Shown here: one piece after another, positions 34,808 through 64,000 of the stretch
Layout of the letters: each line of letters opens with the position of its first letter
How positions within the stretch are numbered: the stretch's first letter is position 1
NCBI GenBank assembly: GCA_040755995.1
Contig: JBFMAF010000032.1
Coordinates: 257,306 to 321,305 of the forward strand
Source: Acidobacteriota bacterium
GTDB taxonomy: Bacteria; Acidobacteriota; CAIWXX01
DNA length: 64,000 nt
Reading direction: 5' to 3'
Position numbers and translations under genes: made by a program
Notes under the pieces: model-generated
Seen by the model: the letters and a program-made list of their open reading frames with translations, nothing else
The model's database searches: none
What the model was told of the DNA's origin: nothing

Positions 34808-35148
34808 CTTCTCTCCATTCGGAATTCAACCAGCGAACCATACCACAAGGCGGCCGTCCGTCGCTCCTCAGCACGCGTCCACCAAGCTCTAGACGGCGAT
34901 CCGCGGCCCCGGGGTTACTCGCCTTCGCATTTCGTAGGAAGGGGTGCCTGCAGCGAGCCGATCCGAATTCCCATCTGATTGCCTCCTGTTAGAGTGTACG
35001 GGCCGGCCCAGGAGCTGGTTTCGTTCGGCCCGGGCAGACATGTATGTGCGGGAGGTCACATCACGCAGCGCCGTGGGGCGCGGGACCTTGATTTCGAGCT
35101 TCCCTATGCGATACTCCGATGGTGTCGCACACAAGGAGGAAGAACGGC

Positions 35149-36179: not shown

Positions 36180-36208
36180 TTGACTTTCCGCTAATATGCG
36201 ACTATATT
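36180..36208 (+). promoter_or_regulatory. Sigma70-type promoter of the cytochrome operon, in an AT-rich block
   Basis: TTGACT-17 bp-TATATT. Confidence 0.65.
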
Positions 36209-36272
36209 AATATTCGAGTATTTGATTTAATACTTAGCTACTTGATTCAGGTTGGAGATAAGGAGGAAGCCA

Positions 36273-36623
36273 ATGATGAAATCAAGTTACGGTCTGATTC
36301 TCGCCGGCCTGCTGATCGCAGGTGTCGGCCTCGCGTGGGCGAAGGACAAGGAGAAGGACGGGCAGGCACTGTACAAGGAGTACTGCAAGACCTGTCATCA
36401 GGCCAAGTCGCCCAACGGCGAGTACACGCCGATGACGCTCATTCAGGAGCAGTGGGAGAGGTTCTTCAAGGACAAGCTGGTGTCAAGCCACGAGAAGGTC
36501 ACCGATCCCAGTCACGAAGGAAAGAAGGTCCTGGAGCTGCTCACGCCGGAGATGCTCGAGACGCTCAAGAAGTGGGTCATCGACCATGCCGCTGACTCAG
36601 AGCACCCGATGACGTGCGGATAA
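36273..36623 (+). CDS. Small periplasmic monoheme c-type cytochrome
   Basis: Signal peptide, GQALYKEYCKTCH and C-terminal HAADSEHPMTCG; AGGAGG RBS. Confidence 0.88.
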   Translation: MMKSSYGLILAGLLIAGVGLAWAKDKEKDGQALYKEYCKTCHQAKSPNGEYTPMTLIQEQWERFFKDKLVSSHEKVTDPSHEGKKVLELLTPEMLETLKKWVIDHAADSEHPMTCG

Positions 36624-36654
36624 GGACCTGACTTTGGAAGAAAGGAATACCGGA

Positions 36655-38382
36655 ATGAAGCGGATTCATATCGCCACTCTGATTCTAACCCTCATGTTTG
36701 CGCCCGGCGTTGTGGCGTGGGCGCAGTCCGGCGGGGAAGAGCCGGAGGAGAACGCCCCCGCCGAAACCCCTTCCGCGGAACCCGAGCAGCCGGCACCAGC
36801 AGAGGACGAAGGGAAGGGGGAAGTCGAGAAGCTCAAGGACGAGCTCAAGAACGCCGAGAAGCAAATCCAGAAACTCGAGCGGCAGGACGCGCTGGACCGA
36901 ATCCAGTTCGGCGGCGACTACCGGTTCGAGGCGCACACGATCGATGCCACAATCCCCGATCACTACGACGGCATGCTGCTGCAGAACGCCCTGGTGAACA
37001 CGCTATTCTACTACGGAGCCACAGGACAGTTCCCCCAGAACCCGACGCAGGTGAACCAGTTCATCGCCGGCCACTACGGCGACTACATGTACTTCACGGA
37101 TCATCTGACGTTTGACGCTCTCAAGGGCTACATGTCGCAATTCCCGCCCGAGATGCAGCAGCAGCTCATGGGGATGCTGCTTCCGTACACCTATGTGCCG
37201 GGATACGACGCCAACAACACCATCCTGTACACCAACCGCCTTCGGTTGACGTTGGAAGCTCCAGTCGGAGAGAACATCAGCTTCTCGGGGCGGCTCTCCA
37301 TGTACAAGGTGTTCGGCGACTCGACCGGCGTACAGGTATTCAACGGCCAGCCCAACTCGATCGCGATCGACGGCACCACAGTGGGCGTTCCCAATTCCGA
37401 CATCCTGCGCGTCGAGAGAGCCTACTTCGACTGGAAGAACATCGGCGGGCTTCCCATCTATCTCTCGATCGGCCGCAGGCCGTCGACCGGCGGAGCCCCG
37501 CTGCACTTGCGACAGGACGAGCCGCGAGGCGGGTCGCCTCTGGGCTCGGTCATCGACTACCAGTTCGACGGCATCACCTTCGGCGTGCATATCGGTGAGC
37601 ACTCGACCGCCCGGCTCTGCTACGGGCTCGGCTACGAGTCAGGCTTCGGCAACGGCGACGTACTGAAGCTCCCTCAAGACCGCCTCGACGACGCGCAGTT
37701 CATCGGCATCAACTGGGACATCTGGAACAGCGACGCGACCTTCGTGCAGACCACACTCGCCTGGGCTATCGACGTGACCGACGGGTTCAACGGGCTGGTG
37801 GTTCTGCCGAACAACCCCGTCACCGGACAGCCCATCGGCGCCCCCGTCATCCTGCGGTTCACCCCGTCTGCCAATCTCGGCAACATCACGCTCGCGAGCG
37901 GTGTAGTCACGCGACGCGACGGCCCGCTCGACTGGTTCGTGAGCGGCAACTACATGTCGTCGGACCCGACGCTGGCGACGACGCCGTTCGGCGGCCTCTT
38001 CAGCGATCCGTTCGAGAAGCCGGAATCCCATAGCGGCGGCATGATCTACGTCGGCGCCCGATACAACTTCGCGAACGAAAAGACGAAGCTCGGCCTGGAA
38101 TACAACCACGGTTCGAAGTACTGGTTCAACTTCTCGGCCGCGGAAGACGACATCATCGCCCCGAAGACCAACACGCGCGGCGACGTGGTCGAGCTCTACC
38201 TGACGCACCGCATCGCGAAGCGGTTCATCTTCAAGGCGGATTTCATGCACTACAAGTACGACTACTCCGGCTCCGGCTGGCACCTCGGCGCCCCCAAGCC
38301 GTTGGATGAGAAGCCTATCCTGGGATTCCCAACCTACGACAGGATCTCGAAGCTCGCCGTGAGCATGGTCGCACGCTTCTAG
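36655..38382 (+). CDS. DUF3373-like outer-membrane beta-barrel protein
   Basis: Signal peptide, short coiled coil, GGDYRF, YTNRLRL, RLSMYKVFGD, SIGRRPSTGG, EYNHGSKYW and a terminal F. Confidence 0.75.
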   Translation: MKRIHIATLILTLMFAPGVVAWAQSGGEEPEENAPAETPSAEPEQPAPAEDEGKGEVEKLKDELKNAEKQIQKLERQDALDRIQFGGDYRFEAHTIDATIPDHYDGMLLQNALVNTLFYYGATGQFPQNPTQVNQFIAGHYGDYMYFTDHLTFDALKGYMSQFPPEMQQQLMGMLLPYTYVPGYDANNTILYTNRLRLTLEAPVGENISFSGRLSMYKVFGDSTGVQVFNGQPNSIAIDGTTVGVPNSDILRVERAYFDWKNIGGLPIYLSIGRRPSTGGAPLHLRQDEPRGGSPLGSVIDYQFDGITFGVHIGEHSTARLCYGLGYESGFGNGDVLKLPQDRLDDAQFIGINWDIWNSDATFVQTTLAWAIDVTDGFNGLVVLPNNPVTGQPIGAPVILRFTPSANLGNITLASGVVTRRDGPLDWFVSGNYMSSDPTLATTPFGGLFSDPFEKPESHSGGMIYVGARYNFANEKTKLGLEYNHGSKYWFNFSAAEDDIIAPKTNTRGDVVELYLTHRIAKRFIFKADFMHYKYDYSGSGWHLGAPKPLDEKPILGFPTYDRISKLAVSMVARF

Positions 38383-38410
38383 TCCGAGTCGAATCGAGCC
38401 TCTTTGTGAA

Positions 38411-38453
38411 AGGCGCGAGGCCTCCGGCAAGGGCCTCGCGCCTCCTCTTTTCT
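38411..38453 (+). terminator. Intrinsic terminator-like hairpin
   Basis: AGGCGCGAGGCC...GGCCTCGCGCCT followed by CCTCTTTTCT. Confidence 0.7.
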
Positions 38454-38510
38454 CTTGCCATAGGCGACACCGCCCCGTGATATGCTCTCTGAATGGAGCG
38501 AGGAGGACTT

Positions 38511-39926
38511 ATGCGGAGATTTCATGCTTCCGCAATCGCACTATTGACGGCGGCTGCACCAGTGTTTGCCGCCGCGGAGTATTCCCACAGCAAGTACTTC
38601 GAGCACTATGAAGGCACGAAAACCTGCCTGAAGTGCCACCTGAACGCCGCTCAGTCTTTTTTCAACTCACAGCACTACCAATGGCAAGGTGAAGCGCCGC
38701 AGATCGTGAACGCCGCCGGGAGAAGGCTGGGCAAGATCAACACGATAAACGATTTCTGCACCAGCCCACGCGCGAGCTGGATCGGCATCCTCCACAACTC
38801 GCGAGGCGATGTCATATCCAAAGGATGTTCGGCCTGCCACGCCGGTCTCGGGAAACTCCCTGACTCCAGGATGACCACCGAGCAGCTCGAGAACATCGAC
38901 TGCCTCATCTGTCACGCGTCCGGCTACCAGCGCGATCTGTATCCCGGAGCGAAGAAGGGATGGGAATGGAAACCGGTTCTCTGGAAGAACCAGGAGGGCC
39001 TGGATTCGGTCTCCAAGAGGATCGGCATGCCGACGCGCAAGAACTGCCTGCGATGCCACGCCGGCTCAGGCGGCGGACCGAACTTCAAGCGCGGCGATAT
39101 CGAGTACAAGCTGTCCGAGTGCGATCGGGACTTCGACGTGCATATGGCCGCGGACGGGACCAACTTCCAGTGCATCGACTGCCATCAGGGCGAAGACCAC
39201 CGCGTCCGCGGGCGCGGCGCCGACCTGTCCGGCACCGACATGCCCGGGAAGCCCCTTTCGTGCGACGGCGGGGAATGCCACGGACCGGCTCCGCACGAAG
39301 CCGAGGTGCTGAACTATCACACGAAGCGCGTCTACTGCGCCACCTGCCATATACCGACCTTCGCCAGGGCCGATTCAACCGACATGGCGCGCGATTGGTC
39401 CAAGCCTGTTCACAACGAGGAACTGGACAAGTGGAGTGCGACGATCACGCTGGAGAAGGATGTGATGCCGGTCTATGCCTGGTACAACGGGACCACCGAG
39501 GAGCAGCTGCCGGGCGAGCCGGTGAAGAAGCTCGCCGGCGGTGCCGTCGGCATGATGATGCCGCAGGGCGGCAAGGACGATCCCAAGTCTCGCATCTATC
39601 CGTTCAAGCTCCATCGCGGCAAGCTGCCGGTGCTCGACGGGAAGAACTTCCTCCTCCCGATAGTCGTCGAGGAGTTCTTCGCGGACGGGAACATCGACAG
39701 GGCAGTCAAGGGCGCGGCGCTGGAGATGTACAATGTGAAGAATGCGACGTATACGTGGGTCGACACGGTGCGATACATGGGCATCTACCACGAGGTCCAG
39801 CCCAAGGAAAAGGCATTGGAGTGTCTCGACTGCCACGGGGCCAAGGGCCGGCTCGACTGGAAGGCGCTCGGGTACGCCGGCGATCCCGTTCTGGCGAGGC
39901 TGGAAGTCGCGCACACTGCCAGGTAG
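38511..39926 (+). CDS. Octaheme c-type cytochrome, octaheme tetrathionate reductase (OTR)-like
   Basis: 7 CxxCH plus one CX4CH (CDGGECH); GKINTINDFC, HAGSGGG..KRGD, DVHM and CATCHIPTFAR. Confidence 0.85.
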   Translation: MRRFHASAIALLTAAAPVFAAAEYSHSKYFEHYEGTKTCLKCHLNAAQSFFNSQHYQWQGEAPQIVNAAGRRLGKINTINDFCTSPRASWIGILHNSRGDVISKGCSACHAGLGKLPDSRMTTEQLENIDCLICHASGYQRDLYPGAKKGWEWKPVLWKNQEGLDSVSKRIGMPTRKNCLRCHAGSGGGPNFKRGDIEYKLSECDRDFDVHMAADGTNFQCIDCHQGEDHRVRGRGADLSGTDMPGKPLSCDGGECHGPAPHEAEVLNYHTKRVYCATCHIPTFARADSTDMARDWSKPVHNEELDKWSATITLEKDVMPVYAWYNGTTEEQLPGEPVKKLAGGAVGMMMPQGGKDDPKSRIYPFKLHRGKLPVLDGKNFLLPIVVEEFFADGNIDRAVKGAALEMYNVKNATYTWVDTVRYMGIYHEVQPKEKALECLDCHGAKGRLDWKALGYAGDPVLARLEVAHTAR

Positions 39927-52241: not shown

Positions 52242-53338
52242 CCGATCATCTCCAGAAACGCCTCCAGCCGCGTGAGCGCGCTCTGCGACAGGGGATCGGA
52301 GAGGTCCACTTCGAGGTTCAGCGTGCGGACACCGATCTCCTGCAGCCCGGTGCGCAGCGCCGGCAGCTGAAACAGCTCGGGTTCGCAGAACTTGATCGTG
52401 TAGAAGACGACTCCTCTGGCGCCGCTCGTGCCCGCGAGGCGCGCAAGGTGAGCGAGCCGGTCCTGGATGCTGCAGCCGCGCATCGGATCCGGCGGTCCCT
52501 GGATGATGCTCTCGGCCATCCGAACGAAGGGCTCCGAGCTCCGGCCGGCGGGGTAGAGCCTGCGGCCGCAGCAAGCGAAGTCGTCGGATGCGACCCTTCC
52601 ACCCATCTTCTCCAGGCTCCGGAGCATCTCCATCGGCTCTGGCACGATGCCTGACATGAGAACGGGTATGTCGTCACGACGGGGATAGCCGCCGGCCCGA
52701 GCGATGATCGTCTCTGCGAGCGCGCACAATCTGTCGGCCGGGAGAAACTCGCGCGAGCGCAACACGCGGTAGAGGTCATACTGCGACAGCGGGAGCTCCG
52801 TGCGCCGCTGATGCAGATCCGCCAGCCAGCGGTCGGCGGCCTCTTCCTGTTCGATGCATTCCATGAGGCGCGTCTCGGAGGGCGTGTACGCCGTGAGCTG
52901 CTCCAGGCGATTGGATAGCGAGCGAAGCTCGGAGGCCAGGAAAGTCAGATCGCTCGGGCGATTGCCGCGGGGCAGATAGATCGGATAGACGGGGCGGGCA
53001 GGGGTGATGAAGTCGATGAGGACGCTGGCCAGGCCCTGGAGCGAGTCGCATGTGTGAGGGACGATGATGAGATCGGCGACGTCGAGGCCTCCGCCGAGAA
53101 CGAACGCCAGGGCGTTCCTGGCGATCGAGCAGATGTAGGGCTGGAGGTGGGTGGCGGCGGATGAGGCGTCGATCTTCGGCGGCCCCCAAACTTCGACGGG
53201 CAGGATATCGAACGCCCGAAACAGCGCCCGCGGGTAGTGAATCGGAAGCACTGCCGCCACGCGGCCACCGCGACCCTTGAACTCGCGAATCACCTCGGCT
53301 CGGCGAGGGATGCTGACGGCATCGTTCGGCGTGCTCAT
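52238..53338 (-). CDS. 2-hydroxyacyl-CoA dehydratase / benzoyl-CoA reductase-like subunit (HgdB/BcrC-like)
   Basis: [28 protein letters not shown] and [10 protein letters not shown]. Confidence 0.88.
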
Positions 53339-53528
53339 CCGAGTGACTCAGGTTTGCGCCGTCGCAAGCCGGGAAATCGCCTGTTCATCTCGGCAGGACC
53401 ATATCAGCCCATGGGGTAGTGATGTCAAGCGCCCGCATTGCCCCGCATTGCGAGGCGAAGCAGGACCGGCGCTGCCCGTGCTGCCGCGCGTTGGTGCATA
53501 ATAGGTATGAGTCGAAGGTCGGTCGCTG

Positions 53529-55352
53529 GTGCACAAGGAACTGGTCGGCATCGCAGGAGTCGTTGGCAGGGATCCCTGTCCGAAGGTTGTCCAGGAGAGG
53601 CTGCCAACGGCGAGTCGTTTCGCGCGTCTCTCTCCAGACGGGCGGGCATGCTTCGTTCACGAGTCCCCCGCAGCCTCGAGCTCGGGCCTGGGCTCGGTGC
53701 AGCTGGCTTTCGACGGGCGGATATACAATCATGATGCGTTGCGGCGTGAGCTGGGGGAGCTCGGTCACGAATTCCGCTCCGACGACGATGCCGAGCTTGT
53801 CATTCGCGGTTACGCGCAGTGGGGAGAGGACGTACTGCGGCGGCTCAACGGGGTTTGGGCTTTCGCCCTGTATGATACCGACTCCAGGAATGCGTTTTGC
53901 GCGCGGGACCGCCTGGGCGTAAGGCCGTTCTACTGGCTGGATCGAGACGAACGGTTCCACTTTTCCTCGGAGATCAGGCCGTTGCTACAGCTGAGCCGTA
54001 CCCGCGCCTCTCCACACCGGCAGCGCGTCTGCGATTTTCTGACACATGGAGGGATGTTCGCTGAGGACGAGCACGAGACATTCTTCGAAGGAGTGCGCAA
54101 GCTCCCGCCTGGCTGCTGCATGCAGGTCGACGCCGGCGGCATGAAAGTCCGGCGGTGGTGGGATCCGGAACCTGGGCGTTCGCATGACAACCTCCGGGAT
54201 CCGGCAGCCCGTTTGCGTGAGCTGCTCGATGACGCAGTCAGGCTGAGGGTGGAGTGCGCAGCCCCGTGCGTTGTGGCGGCAAGCGGCGGTCTGGACTCAT
54301 CCGCGGCTTTGTTCCTTTCCCTCCCGTATACGCCCCTCACTCCATCTACCATCTCTCTCTGCCAGACGGTTCCCTTGTTCGATGAGCGCGAATTCATCAC
54401 CCTGGCTGTCCGGGAATCGAGGAGTCGAGGCACGTTCGTTCATCCTACGGCGGAGCGGATGACGGCAGATCTCCCCGAGCTTTGGCGGGCGCATGAAGAG
54501 CCGCTCCCATCGCCCTCGTCATACGGGCATTTCCTGTTGATCAAGGAGGCTGCAGCCCGGGGATTCAAGAACATAGTTTTCGGCCATGGGCTCGACGAGA
54601 TCGCCGCGGGGTACCCCGAGCACTACTCGTTCCATCTCGCAGATCTCCGACTTGCCGGAAAGGATGATGAGTTCGAACGCGAGATCGAGTTCTGGAAGAC
54701 GCTCTATTGGGGCACCAACGAGCTCTACGAGGATTTCTTCCTGAATCATGTCACTCCGTCCGGAACCTGGAACCGCGCTGGGCACGCGGCCGGGATCGAG
54801 GCGGCCTGCGAGCTGCTCACACCCGATTTCGCCGCACTCTGTCGAGAAATCCCGGACTTCCCGCGGCCTTATCCGACGCTGCTGAAGAACGCCCTGTACC
54901 GCGACCTCCGCTTCACCTCCCTACCCACGCTTCTCCGCATCGAAGCTGCGCATTGCCGGGAGCTCGGAGTCGAGAGCCATGCGCCGTTCCTTGACCACCG
55001 GGTGGTGGAATTCATCATGTCGCTGCCGGGAGAATGCCTGATCAGTGAAGGCCAGCCCAAGTGGATAGTCCGGCGCGCGTTGGAGGGCGTGCTTCCCGAG
55101 CCTCTGCGCTGCCGGGTGAACAAGACGGGCCTGAACGTTCCCCTACAGCAGTGGTACAAAGAGGCCCTGGGCGCGGCCTTGCGCAAGGAACTGGACTCGG
55201 GCATGCCAGCCTCACTCGGCATCTTCGACACCGAGAAGCTGCGCGCCGTCGCTTCACGTCCCAACCTCGATCAGCTGACACTCATCTGGCGCGCGGTGGC
55301 CGTGTCGAGCTGGTACGTGCATTTTGCAGAAGCAGGATCGACCTCATGGTAG
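53529..55352 (+). CDS. Asparagine synthetase B-like ATP-dependent amide ligase with a degenerate glutaminase domain
   Basis: ARDRLGVRP, SGGLDSS, GLDEIAAGY and APFLDHRVVEF; no N-terminal Cys. Confidence 0.85.
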   Translation: MHKELVGIAGVVGRDPCPKVVQERLPTASRFARLSPDGRACFVHESPAASSSGLGSVQLAFDGRIYNHDALRRELGELGHEFRSDDDAELVIRGYAQWGEDVLRRLNGVWAFALYDTDSRNAFCARDRLGVRPFYWLDRDERFHFSSEIRPLLQLSRTRASPHRQRVCDFLTHGGMFAEDEHETFFEGVRKLPPGCCMQVDAGGMKVRRWWDPEPGRSHDNLRDPAARLRELLDDAVRLRVECAAPCVVAASGGLDSSAALFLSLPYTPLTPSTISLCQTVPLFDEREFITLAVRESRSRGTFVHPTAERMTADLPELWRAHEEPLPSPSSYGHFLLIKEAAARGFKNIVFGHGLDEIAAGYPEHYSFHLADLRLAGKDDEFEREIEFWKTLYWGTNELYEDFFLNHVTPSGTWNRAGHAAGIEAACELLTPDFAALCREIPDFPRPYPTLLKNALYRDLRFTSLPTLLRIEAAHCRELGVESHAPFLDHRVVEFIMSLPGECLISEGQPKWIVRRALEGVLPEPLRCRVNKTGLNVPLQQWYKEALGAALRKELDSGMPASLGIFDTEKLRAVASRPNLDQLTLIWRAVAVSSWYVHFAEAGSTSW

Positions 55353-55634
55353 GTCCGCGCAGACAAGCAATACCCAGCAGTGGATGCACGCTCTGAATCG
55401 AGGAGGCCGAAGCGTCGAGAGCGCCGCGGGAAGAGCAGCGCGCGTAGTCGGCATCGGCCCGTTCGTTTTGACGGCAGAGGCCGCAATAGCCCCGGGCTTT
55501 CGCGCCTCGTCCTCCTTCACTCCACCGTCTGAGTCGACACGAGCGCGCCGTCCCGCCTCGGCTCGGCGACGTAGGCGATCGCCCCTGCCGTAGCCGCCGC
55601 CGCGCCCCAGTCTCGCGATTGCAGCGAAGACCCC

Positions 55635-55673
55635 TTGACATGCAGCATGAACTATTCTATTATTCCATTGAAT
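55635..55673 (+). promoter_or_regulatory. Sigma70 promoter overlapped by a palindromic ArsR-type operator
   Basis: TTGACA-17-TATTAT; inverted repeat CTATTC-N12-GAATAG spanning the -10 box. Confidence 0.7.
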
Positions 55674-55688
55674 AGGAGCATATAAGGC

Positions 55689-56366
55689 ATGCGAGGACGT
55701 GACTTCAAGGATGCGGTTTTCGGCCAGTTCGCTCTGATCGCGTCGGCCTTCGCCAGTCCCAAACGGATCGAGATCATCGACATCCTGGCGCAGGGCGAGC
55801 GCAACGTGGAGACTATCGCCGCTGAGAGCGGCCTCACGGTTGCGAATACCTCCCGGCATCTGCAGGTCCTCAAGGGCGCGCACCTCGTACTCTGGCGCAA
55901 GGAGGGTCTGCAGGTCTTCTACCGCCTGGCCGATCCGATGGTTCTGAGCGGATACCGCGCCCTGCGGGGGCTCGCCGAGGCACGCCTGGCCGAGGTTGAG
56001 CGGCTGGTATGCGACTACTTCTCGGGCACTGACGGATTGGAGCCGGTGGAGTCGACGGAGCTGCTCAGGCGCGTGCGCGACCGCGATGCGATCGTAATTG
56101 ACGTGCGCCCGCGGGAGGAGTACGAGGCGGGGCACGTCAGGGGAGCGCTGTCCATCCCGCTCTCCCAGCTCAAACAACGCCTGGCCGGCCTGCCCCGGGG
56201 AAAGCAGATCGTCGCCTACTGCCGCGGACCATACTGCGTCCTCGCGGCGGAGGCCGTGCGGCTGCTCCGAACGCGCGGCTTCGATGCCGTGCGGCTGAAA
56301 GAAGGATACCCGGAATGGCGCGATGCCGGCCTCCCGGTCGCATCCGGTCCTGCCGCATCGGCGTAG
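55689..56366 (+). CDS. ArsR/SmtB regulator fused to a rhodanese domain
   Basis: ASPKRIEIIDILAQGE..SRHLQVL HTH; IDVRPREEYEAGHVRGA and YCRGPYC. Confidence 0.92.
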   Translation: MRGRDFKDAVFGQFALIASAFASPKRIEIIDILAQGERNVETIAAESGLTVANTSRHLQVLKGAHLVLWRKEGLQVFYRLADPMVLSGYRALRGLAEARLAEVERLVCDYFSGTDGLEPVESTELLRRVRDRDAIVIDVRPREEYEAGHVRGALSIPLSQLKQRLAGLPRGKQIVAYCRGPYCVLAAEAVRLLRTRGFDAVRLKEGYPEWRDAGLPVASGPAASA

Positions 56367-56384
56367 AGGAGGGAGGGCACGGCG

Positions 56385-56738
56385 ATGAGACTACTCGTGA
56401 TCCTCAACGATCCGCCGTACGGGACGGAGCGGTCCTACAACGGCCTGCGGCTCGCACTGAGCGTTCTGAAGAGCAGCGAAGAGACCGGCGTCACCGTATT
56501 CCTGATGGGGGACGCTGTCGCCGCGGCCAAGGCCGGACAACAGACCCCGACTGGATACTACAACATCGAGCGAATGCTGCGGGGCGTCCTGACCCGCCGG
56601 GGGGACGTCCTTCTTTGTGGAACGTGCATGGATGCCCGCGGCCTCCGCGACGAGGAGATCCTGGAAGGAGGTCGCCGGAGCACAATGGATGAGCTCACCG
56701 GGCTCACGACTACCGCCGACAAGGTTCTGGTTTTCTAA
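56385..56738 (+). CDS. DsrE/YchN family sulfur-relay protein
   Basis: NDPPYGTERSYNGLRLA, FLMGDAV and LCGTCMDARG. Confidence 0.9.
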   Translation: MRLLVILNDPPYGTERSYNGLRLALSVLKSSEETGVTVFLMGDAVAAAKAGQQTPTGYYNIERMLRGVLTRRGDVLLCGTCMDARGLRDEEILEGGRRSTMDELTGLTTTADKVLVF

Positions 56739-56749
56739 AGGGAGAGACA

Positions 56750-57277
56750 ATGACAGAGCAGATAGTCCACTCGATACTACTCGCCCTGCACAACATCGCG
56801 CTGGTCGGCTGTGCCGCAGCGCCGTTCTACAACCGGGCGCTCGTCGTGAAACGCGGCCAGTACGGTCCGAGACTTCACTATGAGCTGGACAAGGTGGTGG
56901 AGGATACTCTGCAGGGCAACACACCATACTGCATCACCTTCATCATCACGCTTTTCGCGACCGGAATTGCGATGCCGCTCAACCACTACCTGTTCCAAGG
57001 ATCTCTTCGGACGACGAACACTGTGGTGCTGACGGCGCTGGCCGTCAAGCTGGTCGCCGTCTTTGCGATGGTGGGGATCATGTTGGTGATCTTCGGCCGG
57101 ATCAACCCGCGCCTTCGCGCGCTCTGGTCCCGCTTCGCCCCCGGCGTGAAGCCTGATGAGGTTGAGGAGAAGGAATTCTTCGCCCTTCGCTCCCGGCGAA
57201 AGGCACTCTGCGAGACCTGCCTCAAGTTCGCCGTGGTCGTTCTCGTGGCCAGCGCCTTTCTCGGGTTCGGGGCGTGA
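56750..57277 (+). CDS. Four-TM hypothetical membrane protein
   Basis: Four hydrophobic segments; His residues in TM1 and a CETC motif near the last TM. Confidence 0.75.
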   Translation: MTEQIVHSILLALHNIALVGCAAAPFYNRALVVKRGQYGPRLHYELDKVVEDTLQGNTPYCITFIITLFATGIAMPLNHYLFQGSLRTTNTVVLTALAVKLVAVFAMVGIMLVIFGRINPRLRALWSRFAPGVKPDEVEEKEFFALRSRRKALCETCLKFAVVVLVASAFLGFGA

Positions 57278-57303
57278 GGATGAAGTCGAATATGGAGGAT
57301 GCA

Positions 57304-57831
57304 GTGAAACCTAACAACGTGAACATGACAGGGATGATGGCCTTCGTCGAGCAGGCCAAGAGCGACCCGGCGGTGCTGAAGAAGCAGAAGCGGGTCGATG
57401 GCGTTTGGAACCTGGCGGAAGGGCAGCCGCAATTTGCGGCGACGCTCGCCTACCCGGCGGGCGAGAGAACGCTCGAGACCGACCTTCCGCCGTTCATGGG
57501 CGGCGCCGGTCTTGCGCCGGATCCCATCCAATATTGTCTCTTCGGCCTGGCGGCGTGTTTCGCAGGGACCTTCGTTTCGCTGGCCGCCATGGACGGCGTC
57601 ACGCTGTCGAGCCTGCGTGTCATCGCCGAGAATCAGCTCGATCTGACGCGCCCGATGGGGCTGGGAGACAAGCCGGTGGTCGAGAAGGTCACGCTGAGGC
57701 TGCTCGTCGAGTCTGACGCAGACGACGCGAGGCTTCAGGAGCTCGAGCGGCTGGCGCGCGAGCGCTGCCCCGGCGTCTACTGCCTGACGCAGCCGATTCC
57801 TCTCGAAACGCGCGTCGAGCGGCCCCGCTGA
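57304..57831 (+). CDS. OsmC/Ohr family protein (start could be 57280)
   Basis: DLPPFMGGAGLAPDP..LAAC and RCPGVYCL. Confidence 0.88.
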   Translation: MKPNNVNMTGMMAFVEQAKSDPAVLKKQKRVDGVWNLAEGQPQFAATLAYPAGERTLETDLPPFMGGAGLAPDPIQYCLFGLAACFAGTFVSLAAMDGVTLSSLRVIAENQLDLTRPMGLGDKPVVEKVTLRLLVESDADDARLQELERLARERCPGVYCLTQPIPLETRVERPR

Positions 57832-57898
57832 CGCCGCGTCTACGCGGGACAGCACGATGTCAGGCGCATAGGGACCAAAGAGCAGGAGTCAAAGCATC

Positions 57899-60208
57899 GT
57901 GATAGGTTTTTCTCTGGTGGAGTTTTCGGTGCGCCGCCCGAGGCTCGTCGTGGGTCTCGCCGCGACTCTCACTATCCTCTTCCTGCTACCGTTTCGAAAG
58001 ATCAGCACGGATACCAATCCGAAGAACATGCTGCCCCCGACCTCAGATGTGCGTCTGTCCAACGACGAGGTCGAGAAGACCTTCGGGCTCTACGAAGACA
58101 TGATCGTCGTCGGGATCCAGAACGACGCCGGCATTCTCAATGAGGCAACCCTGGGGAGGATACAGCGGATCACCGAGGAGACCCTCACGATCGAGGGCGT
58201 GGCGGCAAGGGACGTATCGAGTTTCACGACGATCGACAACGTGACGATCAGGGAGGGGACTCTGACGATCGAGCCCCTCATGCCCCAAACTCCCACAGAG
58301 GTAGCCCAGATCGAGTCACTCAGGGAGCAGCTTTTCGAGAACCCGTTGTTTCTCGGGCGCATCATCTCTCGCGACGCCAGGACGGCGGCCATCTACGTAC
58401 CGCTCGAAAAAGGGGCGAACGGCAAGGCGGTGGCCGATCGCATCCGTGAGATTGTGGCGAAGGAGAACGGCCCCGAGAGGTATTACATAGCCGGCGATCC
58501 GGTGGCGCGAGACACCTTCGGCGCAGTGATGTTCAAGCTGATGGCGATCTTCTCTCCGATTGCCGGCCTGATCATGTTCGTGGTGATGTTCGTGATGTTC
58601 CGCAATCTCGCGCTGCCCATGGTGATGATGGGCGCCGCGATGATCAGCATCATCTGGAGCATGGGCCTGGTGATTGCGCTGGGCTTCCCCATTCACATCA
58701 TGTCGTCGATGAGCCCGGTCTTCCTGATGGCCATCGCCACCGACAGCATCCACATCTTCAACGAGTTGTATTTTCGCCTTCGCGAAGGCAAAGACCGCCG
58801 CGTCGCCGTGCTCGAGACGATGCAGGCGGTCAGCAGGCCCGTCCGGTACACCGCGCTCGCGACCGCCGCCGGATTCGCTGCGCTCATGCTCATGAGCATC
58901 GTGCCGGTCAGGGTCTTCGGCGGTTTGATTGCTTTCGGCACGATAGCTCTCCGGTTGCTGAGCTTCAGTTTCATCCCCGCTGTGTTGATGCTGTTGGACG
59001 AAGGCCGGCTCCTCGGCACGTCGACGGGGGAGGACAGCGAGCGTGGGCCGGTGGCGAGGTGGCTGCGGGCACTTGGCGGGATCGGGGCATATCATCCGGC
59101 GGCCACAGTGATCGTGGCCGTGGTGCTGGCGGCCGGTTCCATTCTTGGAACCACCCGGATCGTGGTCAACAACAACATGGTCAAGTGGTTCAAGGAAGGG
59201 AGCGAGGTCAGGACGGCCGATGCGGTCATGAACAGGGCTTTGGGCGGCACCTCCCTTGGCTACGTCGTGGCGATCTCGGGTTCGCCTGAGGAGGAGCTCA
59301 TCAAGAACCCTGCGGCGATGCGCTACATCGAGGGTCTCCAGCGGGATCTCGAAAAGCTCCCGCTGGTCGGGAAAACAACGTCGGTCGTGGATTACGTGAA
59401 GAGAATCAACCGAGTCCTGCACGGCGACGATCCTGCGTACGATGTTGTGCCGGACTCCAAGGACCAGATCGGCCAATATCTGTTTCTCTTCTCGATGAGC
59501 GCGAAACCGGCCGATCTCGACAACGTGGTGGACTCGGCCTTCCAAAAGGCGAACATCTGGGTCCAGCTGAAGAGCTGGGACGCGGAAGCAATGCGCGAGG
59601 TCATCCGCCAGATGGAGGAGTACCAGAGATCGCATCACGCGGCGATGACCCTGAAGCCGGCGGGCATCGCCTACTTCAACCTCGTGTGGAACGACGAGGT
59701 CCTCTGGGACATGCTCCGAGGCTTTCTCCTTGCGCTCGTCGTGGTTTTCGGTATCCTCGCAATCAACTTCCGTTCGTTCAAGTGGGCGATCGTCGGATAC
59801 ACTCCGCTGCTTCTGACGGTGCTCTTCATCTACGGGGCCGTAGGGCTGATGAGAAAGGACTTCGACATGCCGATCTCCGTGCTCTCTTGCCTGTCGCTCG
59901 GCATGGCGGTCGACTTCTCGATCCATTTCATCAACCGGTTGAGGCAGCGGGTGGCGGAGGGGCCGGAGCCGCTCCCGGAAGCGTTGCTGTGGACAGCCGC
60001 CCGCCCCGGAAGGGGCATCATTCGGAACGCCCTTCTGTTTGCGCTCGCATTCTCGGTGATGATCTTCGCGCCGCTGACCCCATACGTCACCGTGGGCGCC
60101 TTCATCGCAAGCATGATGATGCTGAGCGCGTTGTTCTCTATCATCCTTCTTCCCGCGCTGATCGTACTGCTCCGGCGCCGGTTGTTTTCGTCACAGGAGG
60201 GATACTGA
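57899..60208 (+). CDS. MMPL/RND family transporter
   Basis: Duplicated architecture with ATDSIH and GMAVDFSIH TM4/TM10 motifs. Confidence 0.9.
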   Translation: MIGFSLVEFSVRRPRLVVGLAATLTILFLLPFRKISTDTNPKNMLPPTSDVRLSNDEVEKTFGLYEDMIVVGIQNDAGILNEATLGRIQRITEETLTIEGVAARDVSSFTTIDNVTIREGTLTIEPLMPQTPTEVAQIESLREQLFENPLFLGRIISRDARTAAIYVPLEKGANGKAVADRIREIVAKENGPERYYIAGDPVARDTFGAVMFKLMAIFSPIAGLIMFVVMFVMFRNLALPMVMMGAAMISIIWSMGLVIALGFPIHIMSSMSPVFLMAIATDSIHIFNELYFRLREGKDRRVAVLETMQAVSRPVRYTALATAAGFAALMLMSIVPVRVFGGLIAFGTIALRLLSFSFIPAVLMLLDEGRLLGTSTGEDSERGPVARWLRALGGIGAYHPAATVIVAVVLAAGSILGTTRIVVNNNMVKWFKEGSEVRTADAVMNRALGGTSLGYVVAISGSPEEELIKNPAAMRYIEGLQRDLEKLPLVGKTTSVVDYVKRINRVLHGDDPAYDVVPDSKDQIGQYLFLFSMSAKPADLDNVVDSAFQKANIWVQLKSWDAEAMREVIRQMEEYQRSHHAAMTLKPAGIAYFNLVWNDEVLWDMLRGFLLALVVVFGILAINFRSFKWAIVGYTPLLLTVLFIYGAVGLMRKDFDMPISVLSCLSLGMAVDFSIHFINRLRQRVAEGPEPLPEALLWTAARPGRGIIRNALLFALAFSVMIFAPLTPYVTVGAFIASMMMLSALFSIILLPALIVLLRRRLFSSQEGY

Positions 60209-60209
60209 G

Positions 60210-61019
60210 ATGTCATTGACGAGGTTTCTCGGAGTTGTGTTCGCCGCAGCCGGCATGGCGACTGCCAGCGCCAGCCCGCTTGTTGCCGAGCCGCTAGATG
60301 CGACGGAGGTGGTGAACCGGATGCACAAGGCGTTCTTCTATCAGGGAGAGAGCCTGCGCGCCCGCGTCAAGATGACACTATCGAGCGCGGATGTGAAGCA
60401 GCGGATTCGCGAGCTCGTCATGCTGCGGCTCAACATGCCTCTGGCCGGCGAGCAGCGGTATTTCATGTATTTCCACTCTCCCGGGGACGTTCGAGGGATG
60501 AGCTTCCTGGTCTACAAGTACCCGGCCAAGGAAGACGATCGGTGGCTGTTCATTCCAGCGCTGAGCCTGGTGCAGCGCGTTGCCGCGAGAGATGCTGGTT
60601 CCAGCTTTGTCGGCTCTGACTTCACTTACGAGGATGTCTCCGGACGAGACTTGGAAGCCGACGAGCACAAACTGTTGCGGGAGGAGGACCACAAGGGCAA
60701 GCCCTGCTTTGTGATTGAGAGCGTGGCGAAAGGAGCCGCGTCGTACAAGAAAAGGATCTCATGGATCGACAAGAGCAGCTACCTCCCGCTCCGGGAGGAG
60801 TACTCCGACGTTCAGGGCAAGGTCTTCAAGGAATTCACCGCAGGTGAGATCCGCGAGGTCGAGGGCATTCCCACGATGATGACACGCACCATGAAGAGTC
60901 TCAAGACAGGACATCAGACGCTCGTGGAGTTCTCCGATGTGCGGTACCGCCTTGCGCTCAAGCCCGATGACTTCGGCGAGCGATCGTTGCGGAATCCACC
61001 CAATAGCTGGATCGAATGA
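60210..61019 (+). CDS. LolA-like outer membrane lipoprotein-sorting protein
   Basis: FHSPGDVRGMSFL, DDRWLFIPAL and SFVGSDFTYED. Confidence 0.88.
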   Translation: MSLTRFLGVVFAAAGMATASASPLVAEPLDATEVVNRMHKAFFYQGESLRARVKMTLSSADVKQRIRELVMLRLNMPLAGEQRYFMYFHSPGDVRGMSFLVYKYPAKEDDRWLFIPALSLVQRVAARDAGSSFVGSDFTYEDVSGRDLEADEHKLLREEDHKGKPCFVIESVAKGAASYKKRISWIDKSSYLPLREEYSDVQGKVFKEFTAGEIREVEGIPTMMTRTMKSLKTGHQTLVEFSDVRYRLALKPDDFGERSLRNPPNSWIE

Positions 61020-62278
61020 GCGCTGTGGTGAGACGCGCAGCCTTGTTGGGCTGCATCATGCTCGCCGGAGAGTCGAGCCTGATCGCGAGTCTCCAATGGC
61101 ACGGATTCGTTTTGGGAAACTACGCGGCTCGCCTAGACGCGCCAAATGGACACAAGCCGGCATCAGGCGATTTCCTTCTGGCCGAGGAAAGATTTCAACT
61201 TAAGATGGCGGCCTCCGCATCGGAAGGCCAGATGCACTGCTTCGTCAAGACCGACCTCGTTCGCGACGAGGTCGACAGCGATGTTTCGGTCGATGTTCGC
61301 GAAGTCTATGTCAGCTTCGCCGAAGGGCCGCTCGATCTCAGCATCGGCCGGCAGATTCACACGTGGGGAGTCGGTGATCTCCTGTTCATCAATGATCTGT
61401 TTCCAAAGGACTACGCCGCGCTTTTCTCGGGCCGGCCGATGGAGTATTTGAAAGTGGGATCGAGCGGCGTCAAGGCCAGCCTCTACGGCACGTCGCTGTC
61501 CCTCGACGTCGTCGTCACACCCTTCTTCGAGGCCGATGTGCTCCCGAGCGCCGATCGATTCTTCCTGTTCGATCCTTTCTCGGGGCTCGTCCCCCGCGTC
61601 GAGGCGAAGCCGCGGCGCGATCTTCAAAACACGGAGATCGCTGCGAGGCTTCGCCGTTCGGTTGCCGGTTTCGACGTGGCGGCGTATGCGTATCGGGGGT
61701 TCTATCGGATCCCTTCGACGCAACCCGACTCGCCCACCACGCCGACGATGGTGTCGCTCGTCTATCCGAAACTTTCGTCGTACGGCGCGAGCGCTCAGGG
61801 CAACGCGCTCGGCGGGGTGCTGAGCATCGAGGCGGGCTATCACGACTCAAGAGAGGACCGCGACGGCTCCAACCCGGTCATCCCCAACTCGCAAACCCGG
61901 TTCCTCATCGGCTACCAGCGCTCCCCCTGGAGCGACACCATCATCGGCTTCCAGTACTATGGAGAGTACATGCAACGCTACCGTCGGTACGAGGCCTCGC
62001 TGCCGGCTGGATTCCCGAAGCAGGATCGACTCCGGCAGGTCCTGACCCTGAGGCTGATGCAGTCGCTGAAGTACCAGACATGGAGAATCTCTCTCTTCAC
62101 GTTCTGGAGCCCGACCGATCACGACTTCTACGCCATCCCCGAGCTGGCACATCGCCTGAGCGATGAGCTCTCTCTGACCCTCGGGGCCAACATTTTCGGC
62201 GGATCGTCCGCGGCTACCTTCTTCGGCCAGCTCAGCCACAACGACAACCTGTACTTCGCAGCTCGCTACGATTTCTGA
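61016..62278 (+). CDS. Outer-membrane beta-barrel protein (DUF1302-like)
   Basis: Signal peptide, REVYV, IGRQIHTWGVGD, FFGQL and terminal ARYDF. Confidence 0.8.
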   Translation: MSAVVRRAALLGCIMLAGESSLIASLQWHGFVLGNYAARLDAPNGHKPASGDFLLAEERFQLKMAASASEGQMHCFVKTDLVRDEVDSDVSVDVREVYVSFAEGPLDLSIGRQIHTWGVGDLLFINDLFPKDYAALFSGRPMEYLKVGSSGVKASLYGTSLSLDVVVTPFFEADVLPSADRFFLFDPFSGLVPRVEAKPRRDLQNTEIAARLRRSVAGFDVAAYAYRGFYRIPSTQPDSPTTPTMVSLVYPKLSSYGASAQGNALGGVLSIEAGYHDSREDRDGSNPVIPNSQTRFLIGYQRSPWSDTIIGFQYYGEYMQRYRRYEASLPAGFPKQDRLRQVLTLRLMQSLKYQTWRISLFTFWSPTDHDFYAIPELAHRLSDELSLTLGANIFGGSSAATFFGQLSHNDNLYFAARYDF

Positions 62279-62548
62279 ACGATTCGCGCAAGCGAGGCGT
62301 GGCAGGCTGCCGCGTCCCGCCATTCGCCATGTGGGCGAGATGTCGTCGGGCCCCCCCACTTCCTCTGGTTCCCCTGGGCGAGGCGGGCAGAGGAAGCTCA
62401 GATCGGTCTCTCATCACGCGAGCAGTCTTGGGGAGTGCGGCAACGCACGATGGTAGCTGAGAGCTGCTGCGAGACCGCGGTTCCGCATCATCGTGTGGTC
62501 CGAAGGCCGGTGCAGGGACAGCAGTCGGCGGGAGGCAGCACAACCAAC

Positions 62549-62577
62549 TTGACTGCGGCGCTCCGGTGTCCTACATT
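62549..62577 (+). promoter_or_regulatory. Sigma70-type promoter facing the cassette array
   Basis: TTGACT-17 bp-TACATT. Confidence 0.55.
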
Positions 62578-62632
62578 CTCGTATACCTGCGGGGATTGTC
62601 TCGTGAAGGAAGACAGGCGGAGAGGATAGATC

Positions 62633-62691
62633 GTCGAACCACGGCTTTCAGCGTATGCGCTAGCGCGCGCCGCTGAAGCCGAACGTTGGGG
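62633..62691 (+). mobile_element. Integron attC site 1
   Basis: GTCGAAC-cacggctttcagcg...cgctgaagccg-aac-GTTGGGG; arms pair with one extra base. Confidence 0.85.
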
Positions 62692-62699
62692 ACACGAGG

Positions 62700-63248
62700 A
62701 TGAAGACTTCAATCGCCCTGATTCTGCTCACATCGTGCGCGCTGGCTCAGGCTGAGGATATCCGAGTGCAGCAGATTCCCGTGAAGCGTATCGCCGGGGT
62801 TCTGCCAAGAGCCTGGTTCATCGAATCCGTGGACACGGCGGCAACCGTGTCCGGGTGGGACAGACTCCAAGGCTCCCGAGGGATTAGGATCATCATATCG
62901 CGACACCCCTACGATCTCACACTAGCTCCGACGAAGGCCGGCGGACTCTCAGTCGACATCCCGCAAGTCGTTCTCTACGTCTTCCCATCGGACTTCGAAG
63001 GGAAGCATGTGAACAACTCCTCAATCTTCCGAGCAGGGAAGGTCATTCCGTCAGACACGACAGCATTCGCGGATCGCGCCGTGCTGATCATGGACAAATT
63101 CACGAAGGTCGGGCAGTGGTATGTCTTTCACAACGCTCCGTCGTTCTCCGATTGGAGGAATCCCGTCGGAGACATGACGGAAGCAATGAAGGAAATCCCC
63201 AACCAGGGGCTATTGCATACGCCGCTACGCGGCGCCGCTGAGCCCTAA
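62700..63248 (+). CDS. Gene cassette: secreted hypothetical protein
   Basis: Signal peptide; starts 8 bp after attC1 and reads into attC2. Confidence 0.8.
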   Translation: MKTSIALILLTSCALAQAEDIRVQQIPVKRIAGVLPRAWFIESVDTAATVSGWDRLQGSRGIRIIISRHPYDLTLAPTKAGGLSVDIPQVVLYVFPSDFEGKHVNNSSIFRAGKVIPSDTTAFADRAVLIMDKFTKVGQWYVFHNAPSFSDWRNPVGDMTEAMKEIPNQGLLHTPLRGAAEP

Positions 63249-63256
63249 CGTTCGGC
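63197..63256 (+). mobile_element. Integron attC site 2
   Basis: CCCCAAC-caggggct...cgccgctacgcggcg...gagccct-aac-GTTCGGC. Confidence 0.8.
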
Positions 63257-63267
63257 ACAGGAGAAAG

Positions 63268-63768
63268 ATGAGAGCAACTCTCGCCATGTTGATCCTCATG
63301 GGAGGTATATGCCCGGCTTCCGAAGAGAAGCCGATGATCCCGGTAGGTTTCCACGCCCAAGCAGAACTCGCCGTATTCAAGAGCGGCAAGCCCCTCCTCA
63401 TGAGTCTCACGCTCACCAACGATTCATCCAGACCGATTCGTTTCACAACTTTCTCGACCGAACCCAATGAATGGAACGGCGAGACCTTCAACATCAGCCT
63501 TGTTGATGTCCACAGGATCGGAGAGAGGCGGAATCTGTGCTTGGCCCGTCCCGAGTTGAGAGTCCCGTTGACCGTATCGGGCCCCGGCTCACATTCGATC
63601 CAGCCAGGGAGGAATCTTCGCGTCACGATCGATACGAGCAAATGGAGAATAGACGGGGATTGGATCAAAGGAGAATACGCCCTGGTTTTCAGAATGGACA
63701 ACATCACGGTTGAGGACAAGATCAGCATATCGATACTAAGTGAGCCCGTCCACGTAATCGTACAATGA
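63268..63768 (+). CDS. Gene cassette: secreted beta-sandwich-like hypothetical protein
   Basis: Signal peptide, AGGAG RBS and lower GC; lies between attC2 and attC3. Confidence 0.8.
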   Translation: MRATLAMLILMGGICPASEEKPMIPVGFHAQAELAVFKSGKPLLMSLTLTNDSSRPIRFTTFSTEPNEWNGETFNISLVDVHRIGERRNLCLARPELRVPLTVSGPGSHSIQPGRNLRVTIDTSKWRIDGDWIKGEYALVFRMDNITVEDKISISILSEPVHVIVQ

Positions 63769-63773
63769 AGAAT

Positions 63774-63852
63774 GCCGAACCAACAGATCCAGGTGACAAG
63801 CAATAGCCTCTCGGACACGACTATTGCTTGCCCCTGATCTGAGTCGTTGGGC
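63774..63852 (+). mobile_element. Integron attC site 3
   Basis: GCCGAAC-caacagatccagg..caagcaatag...ctattgcttg..cctgatctg-agtc-GTTGGGC. Confidence 0.88.
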
Positions 63853-63904
63853 GGGCCCGGCTTTGCAGGTGGCGGAACGCCAGCGATCCTCTAAGGAGCA
63901 ATCG

Positions 63905-64000
63905 ATGAAACAATTGAAGGGGTTGGCAGTGCTTCTGACGGGCGGGTCCCGCGGTATCGGGCCAATAGTGGCTGAGGCTCTGGCAAAGCGAGGTGCCAAC
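63905..64000 (+). CDS. SDR family oxidoreductase (runs off the window; not in the ORF track)
   Basis: TAAGGAG RBS; MKQLKGLAVLLTGGSRGIGPIVAEALAKRGAN contains TGxxxGIG. Confidence 0.85.
   Translation, partial: MKQLKGLAVLLTGGSRGIGPIVAEALAKRGAN

Follow-up and report, generated by a model that had tools for sequence, protein, structure and literature searches.

A sulfur-linked branch of a pump, carrier and outer-membrane barrel system in an Acidobacteriota operon, with zero-valent sulfur as candidate cargo

The window analysed here is a stretch of 64,000 nucleotides from an Acidobacteriota bacterium (assembly GCA_040755995.1, contig JBFMAF010000032.1, positions 257,306 to 321,305 of the forward strand). 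Near its end, seven same-strand genes encode an ArsR-rhodanese fusion repressor, a DsrE-family protein, a four-helix membrane protein, an OsmC-like protein, and a trio made of an MMPL-type inner-membrane pump, a periplasmic LolA-like carrier and a DUF1302-family outer-membrane barrel. Comparison of sequences and neighbourhoods indicates that trios of this kind are a genuine and conserved variant, apparently not described so far, of an envelope system that is already known; its sulfur context is well supported and its cargo is a candidate only. Our tentative reading, held a little short of even confidence, is that the operon would serve to expel zero-valent sulfur in apolar form, as S8 or organic polysulfanes. 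The first-pass annotation of this stretch had proposed an uncharacterised, sulfur-controlled pathway for hydrophobic molecules. Sulfur linkage and an operator speak for that proposal, but "uncharacterised" does not hold for the type of trio, since AmeABCD has been studied.

The sulfur context emerges from comparison across loci. The gene-neighbourhood survey that the first-pass annotation had suggested drew on GTDB (9 loci), metagenomes (the best 80 of 532 confirmed) and the host phylum. Its 125 trio-hit loci form 109 groups at 90% identity, of which 39 with less than 3 kb of flank were dropped, including L074 and L075; the rest are 40 close, 3 intermediate and 17 distant groups, and 10 without a detected MMPL gene. 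A gene for rhodanese, DsrE, DsrH, DsrE2, TusA, NifS or SQR (sulfide:quinone oxidoreductase) lies within 5 kb in 31 of the 40 close loci vs 0 of the 17 distant ones, a comparison in which the neighbour profiles were built from close loci and hence favour them. For this branch of the trio, repeated linkage to sulfur-relay genes was thus borne out. Gene by gene, the close loci have rhodanese in 13, DsrE in 22, DsrH in 4, DsrE2 in 6, TusA in 2, SQR in 15 and NifS in 7. When rhodanese is left uncounted 27 of the 40 are still sulfur-linked, and in 30 a sulfur gene lies on the same strand within 2 kb. ArsR genes accompany 30 close loci and no distant one; TetR genes accompany 13 distant loci and no close one. 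The SQR count involves two flavoprotein clusters whose best match is an SQR model, below its cut-off, and whose conserved cysteine motifs we take to be those of type I-like and type III SQR.

An independent Pfam check covered 158 open reading frames (ORFs) around 16 distant and 3 intermediate loci, leaving out those longer than 480 residues, nine of 437-477 residues and three short loci, and found no DsrE, rhodanese, TusA or Pyr_redox_2 (SQR-type) gene among them. A class V aminotransferase at L045, beside a 2-hydroxyacid dehydrogenase, was judged not to be a desulfurase. On a quick IQ-TREE phylogeny of 57 MMPL proteins, in which L076 fits poorly on a long branch, 8 changes account for the sulfur label, vs a mean of 19.4 when labels are shuffled, and 0 of 500 shuffles was as low. 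The label spans two MMPL sub-branches that are about 40% identical, and the TetR trios sit on a separate branch (Shimodaira-Hasegawa-like approximate likelihood ratio support, SH-aLRT, of 89). Because kin are not independent, the tree shows clustering and not co-evolution. Within the host phylum a sulfur gene adjoins a close trio in 6 of 9 genomes (G001, G121, G014, G046, G228, G154), and two more have ArsR only. Judged by these neighbourhoods, the sulfur-linked branch appears to recur in many uncultured bacteria. Some trios also stand beside genes for arsenic chemistry (ArsC-like, ArsF, ArsG and ArsM-like; L074, L075, L086, L129), a TsoC-type selenoprotein (L080, L082, L099) or SelD (L103, L122).

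ORF calls in the window confirm the seven plus-strand genes at 55689-62278 directly behind one promoter, with intergenic gaps of 18, 11, -4, 67, 1 and -4 nucleotides (Table 1). Because the gaps are short and no promoter or terminator was detected inside the block, a single transcript is likely, a prediction from spacing; an Rfam scan of 54000-64000 gave no match. The co-oriented genes, the promoter and the overlapping palindrome reported by the first-pass annotation were all recovered by ORF, promoter and inverted-repeat scans, and the CRGPYC, CGTC and CETC motifs and the OsmC cysteines are present in the translations. The seven-gene set as a conserved unit was not upheld. Among 126 loci, fetched by a LolA-like or MMPL query and many of them short, clusters were found for MMPL in 95, for the LolA-like carrier in 106 and for the barrel in 95; the four-helix protein is matched in 9 and OsmC in 1.

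Table 1. Features of the operon and of its candidate regulon partner, in window coordinates.
Feature	Position	Strand	Basis
Sigma-70-type promoter, TTGACA-17-TATTAT	55635..55663	+	11/12 consensus matches; top of 7 hits in 54000-64000; shuffle mean 1.9
Putative palindromic operator of the ArsR-rhodanese family	55652..55675	.	13/14 to TATTCAA-N8-TTGAATA
ArsR-rhodanese fusion repressor, 225 residues	55689..56366	+	Pfam HTH_5 and Rhodanese; NCBIfam
DsrE-family sulfur carrier, YchN type, 117 residues	56385..56738	+	PF02635, E 5e-22
Four-helix membrane protein, 175 residues, CopD/DUF2269-like	56750..57277	+	Homologue alignment and model
OsmC-like thiol protein	57274..57831	+	PF02566, E 4e-15
HAE3/MMPL-type RND inner-membrane transporter, 769 residues	57899..60208	+	PF03176, two stretches
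Periplasmic LolA-like carrier (LolA3-type), 269 residues	60210..61019	+	PF17131, E 2e-56
DUF1302-family outer-membrane barrel, 420 residues, C-terminal Phe	61016..62278	+	PF06980, 27 bits, cut-off 23.2
Second promoter, TTGACT-17-TATATT (36180-36208), and operator-like site (36210-36233)	36180..36233	+	Promoter 10/12; matrix 27.1
Candidate co-regulated operon: monoheme cytochrome c, DUF3373 barrel (36634-38382), octaheme cytochrome c (38493-39926)	36273..39926	+	ORFs, Pfam

The regulator is a point on which we depart from the earlier proposal, which named BigR/SqrR as ArsR repressors that sense persulfides. Papers are cited here by PMC number. The BigR/SqrR sensors are defined by a cysteine pair in helices 2 and 5, and the arsenic site of ArsR regulators is a CXC in helix 3 (PMC10054925). 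The fusion has an ArsR side (PF01022, E 5e-9; NF033788 above cut-off). However, in an alignment with two BigR-like proteins from the loci its helix-2 position is Asp; its sole ArsR-side cysteine, C108, is not conserved, and no ArsR-side cysteine is common to all homologues. The BigR model NF040642 scores 35 bits against a cut-off of 155. We therefore reject the BigR/SqrR identity, because the cysteine pair is missing and the model falls far short. The CmtR model, too, gives a score far short of its cut-off, and helix 3 carries no CXC. Its rhodanese loop is CRGPYC (C178, C183), so that by sequence it has the mark of a catalytic rhodanese, a conserved cysteine in a six-residue active-site loop, and CRG[PS]YC is retained in 16 of 17 homologues from the loci, the 17th being frame-broken. 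Sensing would likely take place at this loop. The likeness to BigR, SqrR and HlyU (sequence similarity network cluster 4; PMC10054925) lies in the ArsR fold, the operator over the promoter and the sulfurtransferase and SQR neighbours; the difference is a cysteine pair in helices 2 and 5 there and a fused rhodanese with a CRG[PS]YC loop here. Genuine BigR-like repressors do head two more divergent trios, L139 and L032.

A survey of 300 genomes of the host phylum found the fusion encoded in 19 others. Where a fusion has no trio, its neighbours include a YchN-like DsrE, a type III SQR or both in 13 of 15 cases (one match is a 42-residue piece at a contig end). Because of this we regard fusion, DsrE and SQR as the core module, as far as gene content can tell, and the trio as an optional addition to it. 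In two of the trio-less modules, L186 and L189, an MFS transporter takes the place of the trio, and L186 has in addition a rhodanese-metallo-beta-lactamase (PDO-like) fusion. Elsewhere in the host genome (G000:C11:113926-120718, L149) a stand-alone ArsR gene and a YgaP-like gene lie 6 kb apart.

The palindrome in the promoter had been proposed as a regulatory site, and its sequence behaves like a conserved operator of the ArsR-rhodanese family. Its arms (55652-55660 and 55667-55675) overlap the -10 box. A match of at least 11/14 to TATTCAA-N8-TTGAATA occurs within 110 nucleotides upstream of 11 of 18 fusions vs 0.9% of shuffles, and upstream of 3 of 19 stand-alone ArsR genes. At the 15 trio-less fusion loci, which lie outside the derivation set, a site of at least 12/14 is found in 9, and in 8 of these it is directly upstream of the fusion. 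In G001 the operator precedes a run of SQR, DsrE, fusion and trio. By a weight matrix built from 10 sites of other loci, the window operator is the top site of its genome (29.2), the second, at 36210-36233 of the same window, reaches 27.1 (the best of 8 local shuffles gave 13.7-21.2) and the third 18.4.

That second site lies behind another promoter, ahead of a candidate regulon member, an operon of porin and cytochromes. Its octaheme cytochrome resembles tetrathionate reductase (TIGR04315, 319.5 bits with a cut-off of 375; PDB 1SP3, E 6e-62), and one of the proteins that are abundant during thiosulfate disproportionation belongs to DUF3373 (PMC13490349). If mismatches alone are counted, the genome has five sites at 12/14, the second site among them, where shuffles give 0-2; what sets it apart is solely its weight-matrix score and its place behind a promoter. 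A regulon link conserved across genomes found no support: 0 of 11 upstream regions of other octaheme operons have the operator, and the fusion occurs in 0 of the 19 other genomes with that cytochrome. Since those genomes are without the fusion, the missing operator is what one would expect if the site needs its regulator. The unit of cytochrome c, DUF3373 protein and octaheme cytochrome recurs in the phylum, twice with a neighbouring rhodanese gene (L170, L172). Another 12/14 site of the host (G000:C36:276365) has a low matrix score; the other 12/14 site of G001 is intragenic and that of G121 has no clear target. Beside the cytochrome operon, at 30339-35739, are genes for HlyD, an ABC ATPase and two MacB-type permeases (minus strand) and a YceI gene.

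The three genes between regulator and pump may serve the handling of sulfur at the cytoplasmic membrane. The DsrE protein has cysteines C78 and C81 in its CGTC motif, and C78 we take to be the DsrE active-site position. Its sole PDB match is E. coli YchN (1JX7), over the whole length, with E 2e-20. It falls below the TusD cut-off of NCBIfam and is a single gene here, which sets it apart from the TusD and DsrEFH subunits; DsrEFH-like gene sets flank some other trios.

The four-helix protein is harder to place. Hydropathy gives four helices, and no Pfam family is above cut-off. Its family has 469 homologues, the best 120 at 66-81% identity, and in their alignment H14, C61 and C157 are invariant and C21 and C154 nearly so. 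One member, P0092, is fused to a DsrE domain, and because of this fusion we tie the protein to sulfur handling. Its model is a four-helix bundle with a predicted local distance difference test (pLDDT) score of 92. Foldseek found nothing at E<=0.001, and the top VIA-align rows (Z 13-15) belong for the most part to designed helical bundles, so the fold cannot be assigned to a family. Likeness to CopD is weak (hhalign probability 32%, Atlas 0.89-0.90, no PF05425 or DUF2269 match of its own), and of the 120 homologues listed, 10 have a recorded PF05425 match. A longer, DUF2269-like sister family also adjoins trios, and H14, C61 and C157 are invariant across both; the loci listed for the two families are L056, L062, L063, L066, L073, L088, L097, L128 and L132. 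OsmC starts at GTG 57274 or at one of the next ATGs and has cysteines C88, C95, C165 and C170; judged by its distribution it is accessory and peripheral to the related loci.

Turning to the trio, the pump's best NCBIfam model is TIGR00921 (HAE3), matched over the full length at 189 bits vs a cut-off of 352, and 11 helices are above the hydropathy threshold, where an HAE3/COG1033 pump of the RND type has 12 together with two periplasmic domains. It keeps D282 and D672 in its predicted proton-relay helices and has branch-specific Met and His residues (M44, M211, M248, M255, H266, M268, M565, M605). Four of the best 120 MMPL homologues are in-frame MMPL-LolA-like fusions (P0138, P0172, P0188, P0201; 1034-1037 residues, with a signal-peptide-like segment at the joint), probably all from one lineage. 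The carrier has a signal peptide and no lipobox cysteine. Its nearest structures by sequence and fold are PDB 9TP6 (LolA3), 3BK5, 4Z48 and 3BUU, and it matches 9TP6 at E 7e-58 by profile, with 27% identity and a template-modelling (TM) score of 0.70-0.78. DUF1329 scores 21.8 bits on it with a cut-off of 23.1. Canonical LolA of the Lol pathway was rejected as its identity: PF03548 is lacking and TM is about 0.3, vs 0.6-0.7 for the LolA3 type.

The barrel has no PDB relative by profile search, and its Atlas neighbours are DUF1302/porin clusters (0.98-0.99). Predicted together with the carrier it gives a complex scoring 0.91 in three runs, where the best of 3 controls gave 0.01; 116 of 157 complexes of solved structure attain the mark, as do 2 of 215 mismatched pairs, counts that are only rough for the present alignments. 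Contact agreement is at least 88% and partner pLDDT at least 88. In the predicted interface carrier residues 117-137 meet the barrel's conserved 112-118 stretch and termini, and the carrier segment 108-145, which spans this loop, is low-confidence in the monomer model. The modelling supports binding of barrel and carrier to each other. A covalent persulfide relay within the trio was rejected, because no cysteine column is both branch-specific and conserved.

Some observations on related trios belong here. A gene of 60-70 residues, YgaP-like with two helices, often abuts MMPL or sits between MMPL and carrier (L122:8057-8248, L031:8841-9044, L143:12486-12689, L062, L094, L086, L033), and its product is a possible accessory subunit. 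The MMPL proteins of L031, L032, L033 and L139 are 857-955 residues long and have periplasmic domains with acidic insertions. The host has two LolA-like paralogues (27-29%) with no MMPL neighbour, at G000:C40:103393-103932 and C36:123433-123915. A search of plasmids for trios found distant ones only, at 24-34% identity.

The nearest studied system is AmeABCD of Castellaniella defragrans, a system of HAE3 pump, DUF1302 protein and LolA-superfamily protein that has been studied as an exporter of apolar monoterpenes (PMC6394551). Both have a pump (here HAE3-like by a best match below cut-off), a DUF1302 protein and a LolA-superfamily protein in one cassette, and the PDB relatives 4Z48, 3BK5 and 3BUU found here are named in that paper too. 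The differences are also clear. AmeC, a COG4447/Ycf48-like protein, has no counterpart in the operon block or the recurring neighbour clusters (a BNR/Ycf48-like ORF 11 kb upstream is unlinked); the carrier there is a 451-residue DUF1329 protein and the barrel has 605 residues, whereas here they are a 269-residue PF17131 protein and a 420-residue barrel; and the context there is terpene catabolism, whereas here it is a sulfur relay under ArsR with the order pump, carrier, barrel. We believe the operon works like AmeABCD, but we do not file it as a member because it is without AmeC. The best solved relative of the carrier, LolA3 of Porphyromonas gingivalis, binds LolB weakly and has no known function (PMC13103446). 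In Bacteroidota, TetR-MMPL-lipoprotein-sorting-protein operons are headed by TetR and switched on when iron is limiting (PMC10434189), whereas the present branch is ArsR-led and sulfur-linked. An MMPL-LolA-like fusion is induced by alkanes (PMC6304351).

From the side of sulfur transport the closest comparison is YedE1E2/YeeE (PmpAB-like). There too membrane transport genes lie beside ArsR, rhodanese and SQR, and YedE1E2 moves zero-valent sulfur; it imports rather than exports it and depends on cysteines (PMC10812762). YedE1E2 is confined to the inner membrane, whereas the trio reaches across both membranes, and none of its cysteines is branch-specific. The four-helix protein does have membrane cysteines, but it has no YeeE/YedE Pfam match. 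Unlike operons of SQR-coupled sulfide oxidation, the host operon has no SQR, and type I and type III queries found none in the genome. In the open-access literature we found no account of MMPL/HAE3, LolA-like and DUF1302 proteins tied to sulfur genes, nor of the operator; the available portion of PMC13047784 does not mention RND, MMPL or LolA, and the main texts of PMC13490349 and PMC6378623 do not mention MMPL or RND. It appears that only the sulfur-linked branch is undescribed and that the trio type itself is known.

The host, whose 7.7 Mb genome is 99.8% complete, has a dissimilatory sulfate-reduction cluster (G000:C34:50411-64886; L147, L148) with dsrAB, dsrC, dsrN (CobB-like), aprBA and qmoA-like genes, of which dsrA, dsrC, aprB and aprA score over cut-off. 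From position and motifs we read a GltD-family gene there as DsrL-like and a short ORF with no model match as dsrD-like.

Put together, the seven genes would make one self-repressed sulfur-stress operon. Sulfane sulfur would persulfidate or bridge the CRGPYC cysteines of the rhodanese, and the repressor would then leave the -10 box. The YchN-type DsrE, the four-cysteine membrane protein and OsmC may accept, shuttle or reduce sulfane sulfur at the cytoplasmic membrane face. The HAE3/MMPL pump, as its family suggests, would lift apolar cargo from the inner membrane by proton motive force, and the carrier, docking its conserved loop 117-137 on the barrel, is predicted to pass the cargo on, so that pump, carrier and barrel would join as a single channel expelling sulfur from the envelope. 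Since the trio is without a branch-specific cysteine, its cargo would be carried without a covalent bond. Given the lack of special cysteines, the LolA-type groove and the AmeABCD precedent, the simplest reading is that an apolar species is exported in this way; given the sulfur partners of the trio, zero-valent sulfur or organic polysulfanes are the best candidates. In relatives with an adjoining SQR the expelled sulfur would be the product of SQR. Because the host is without SQR, its sulfur would come from outside or from re-oxidised sulfide.

A good deal weighs against sulfur efflux. The host yields no SQR to type I or type III queries, tblastn included, and of 12 further genomes of the phylum that bear a trio, 8 gave no hit to the type III query. 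SQR adjoins only 15 of the 40 close trios, and 9 of the 40 have no core sulfur gene at all. The close loci are mostly metagenomic and the distant ones all from one phylum, and kin are not independent. NifS (7/40), cystathionine lyase (2) and SelD (2) near close trios make, and do not remove, reactive sulfur or selenium, and the methyltransferases near 9 of the 40 fit export of a modified product equally well. OsmC is rare in related loci, with a single homologue at L056, 52% identical. The trio adjoins the fusion in just 4 of the 19 other fusion-bearing genomes, so it is dispensable to the sulfur module. The octaheme link is confined to the host genome, because the operator is missing ahead of all 11 other octaheme operons. 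These points leave room for other explanations.

The first accepts sulfur-redox control but gives the pump an apolar cargo other than sulfur, be it oxidised lipids, products of lipid hydroperoxides or lipophilic toxins, as in AmeABCD. It draws on the OsmC gene in the operon, on the fatty-acid-hydroxylase-family genes (3/40) and FadL (2/40) near close trios, on a trio without special cysteines, and on related systems, one of which responds to monoterpenes (PMC6394551) and another, in which an MMPL-LolA-like fusion goes with a porin, to long alkanes (PMC6304351). We consider it unlikely nonetheless. OsmC recurs just once, the recurrent partners are sulfur carriers and SQR and not peroxidases, and the trios governed by TetR, the usual lipid or drug sensor, form another branch.

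Another explanation is that the module makes a thiolated or methylated product, such as methylated sulfur or selenium species or thio-arsenicals, which the trio exports. The NifS-like desulfurase, the methyltransferases (2 of them ArsM-like), SelD and a TsoC-like selenoprotein (3/40) could supply such products, and L074 and L075, both uncounted for their short flanks, have genes for an ArsC-like phosphatase, ArsF and ArsG. However, none of these enzymes is in the window's operon, ArsC, ArsF and ArsG are found in 0 of the 40 counted loci, and the regulator is without the helix-3 CXC arsenic site (PMC10054925). We think this quite improbable.

The direction could also be reversed, the channel bringing elemental sulfur or polysulfanes inward to the DsrE carriers and the host's Dsr/DsrL pathway as electron acceptor. 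A host with dsrAB, dsrC, dsrN, DsrL-like, aprBA and qmoA-like genes and no SQR would suit this, as would the operator ahead of the porin and octaheme reductase-like cytochrome. The distribution of dsrA cuts both ways: of the 5 trio genomes that GTDB loci led to, 3 have it over cut-off, but of the 12 trio genomes of the phylum just 1 does, a figure that is no help to efflux either. RND proteins are generally exporters and AmeABCD behaves as one, and YedE1E2, the proven importer of zero-valent sulfur, needs membrane cysteines of which the trio has none (PMC10812762). Import therefore strikes us as very doubtful.

Efflux of a soft metal (Cu, Ag or Hg) or metal sulfide, with the sulfur relay as helper, would explain the branch-specific Met and His residues of the pump, the resemblance of the four-helix protein to CopD-clan proteins and the genes for CusA/AcrB (3), CopD (2) and a P-type ATPase (1) in the vicinity of some of the 40 loci. 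Such genes are rare beside the trio, though, the CopD likeness is weak, the regulator is no CmtR and lacks the CXC, and a LolA-type groove suits apolar cargo (PMC13103446), so we regard this as highly improbable. Incidental linkage, a general envelope trio in a stress island beside a sulfur module, could account for the varying gene order and for the trio's absence from 15 of 19 fusion loci, but can hardly be right when the link holds across two divergent MMPL sub-branches and many rearrangements, on the same strand and within 2 kb in 30 of 40.

Two neighbours complete the description of the window. Upstream of the operon, at 50922-55352, are two 2-hydroxyacyl-CoA dehydratase (HGD-D) subunit genes (minus strand) and an asparagine-synthetase-like amidotransferase gene, with no connection to the operon seen. 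After a gap of 421 nucleotides 3' of the barrel gene come two short ORFs with signal-peptide-like starts (62700-63768) and no Pfam or NCBIfam match.

We return to the sulfur efflux reading in its widest form, which we hold more tentatively than the reading of the operon itself. The ArsR-linked HAE3/LolA3/DUF1302 branch may be a dedicated two-membrane exporter of zero-valent sulfur in many anaerobic or microaerobic phyla, with an undescribed persulfide sensor, the ArsR-CRGPYC-rhodanese; in the host this regulator might also control the porin-octaheme unit, and the His/Cys four-helix protein might couple DsrE to a membrane sulfur pool. What the present analysis adds is the matched TetR control, the reverse test, the operator and its second site, the fusion of four-helix protein and DsrE, the barrel-carrier model and the recognition of an SQR-less, sulfate-reducing host. 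How elemental sulfur crosses bacterial envelopes is unsettled, and PMC6378623 lists, in its available portion, only possible uptake routes. If the cargo is S8 or polysulfanes, an export route would have a name and the LolA3 and DUF1302 proteins would gain a function. Whatever the cargo, three things can be put to a direct test: the operator of the ArsR-rhodanese fusions, the contact predicted between barrel and carrier, and a conserved membrane protein with cysteines that is found fused to DsrE.

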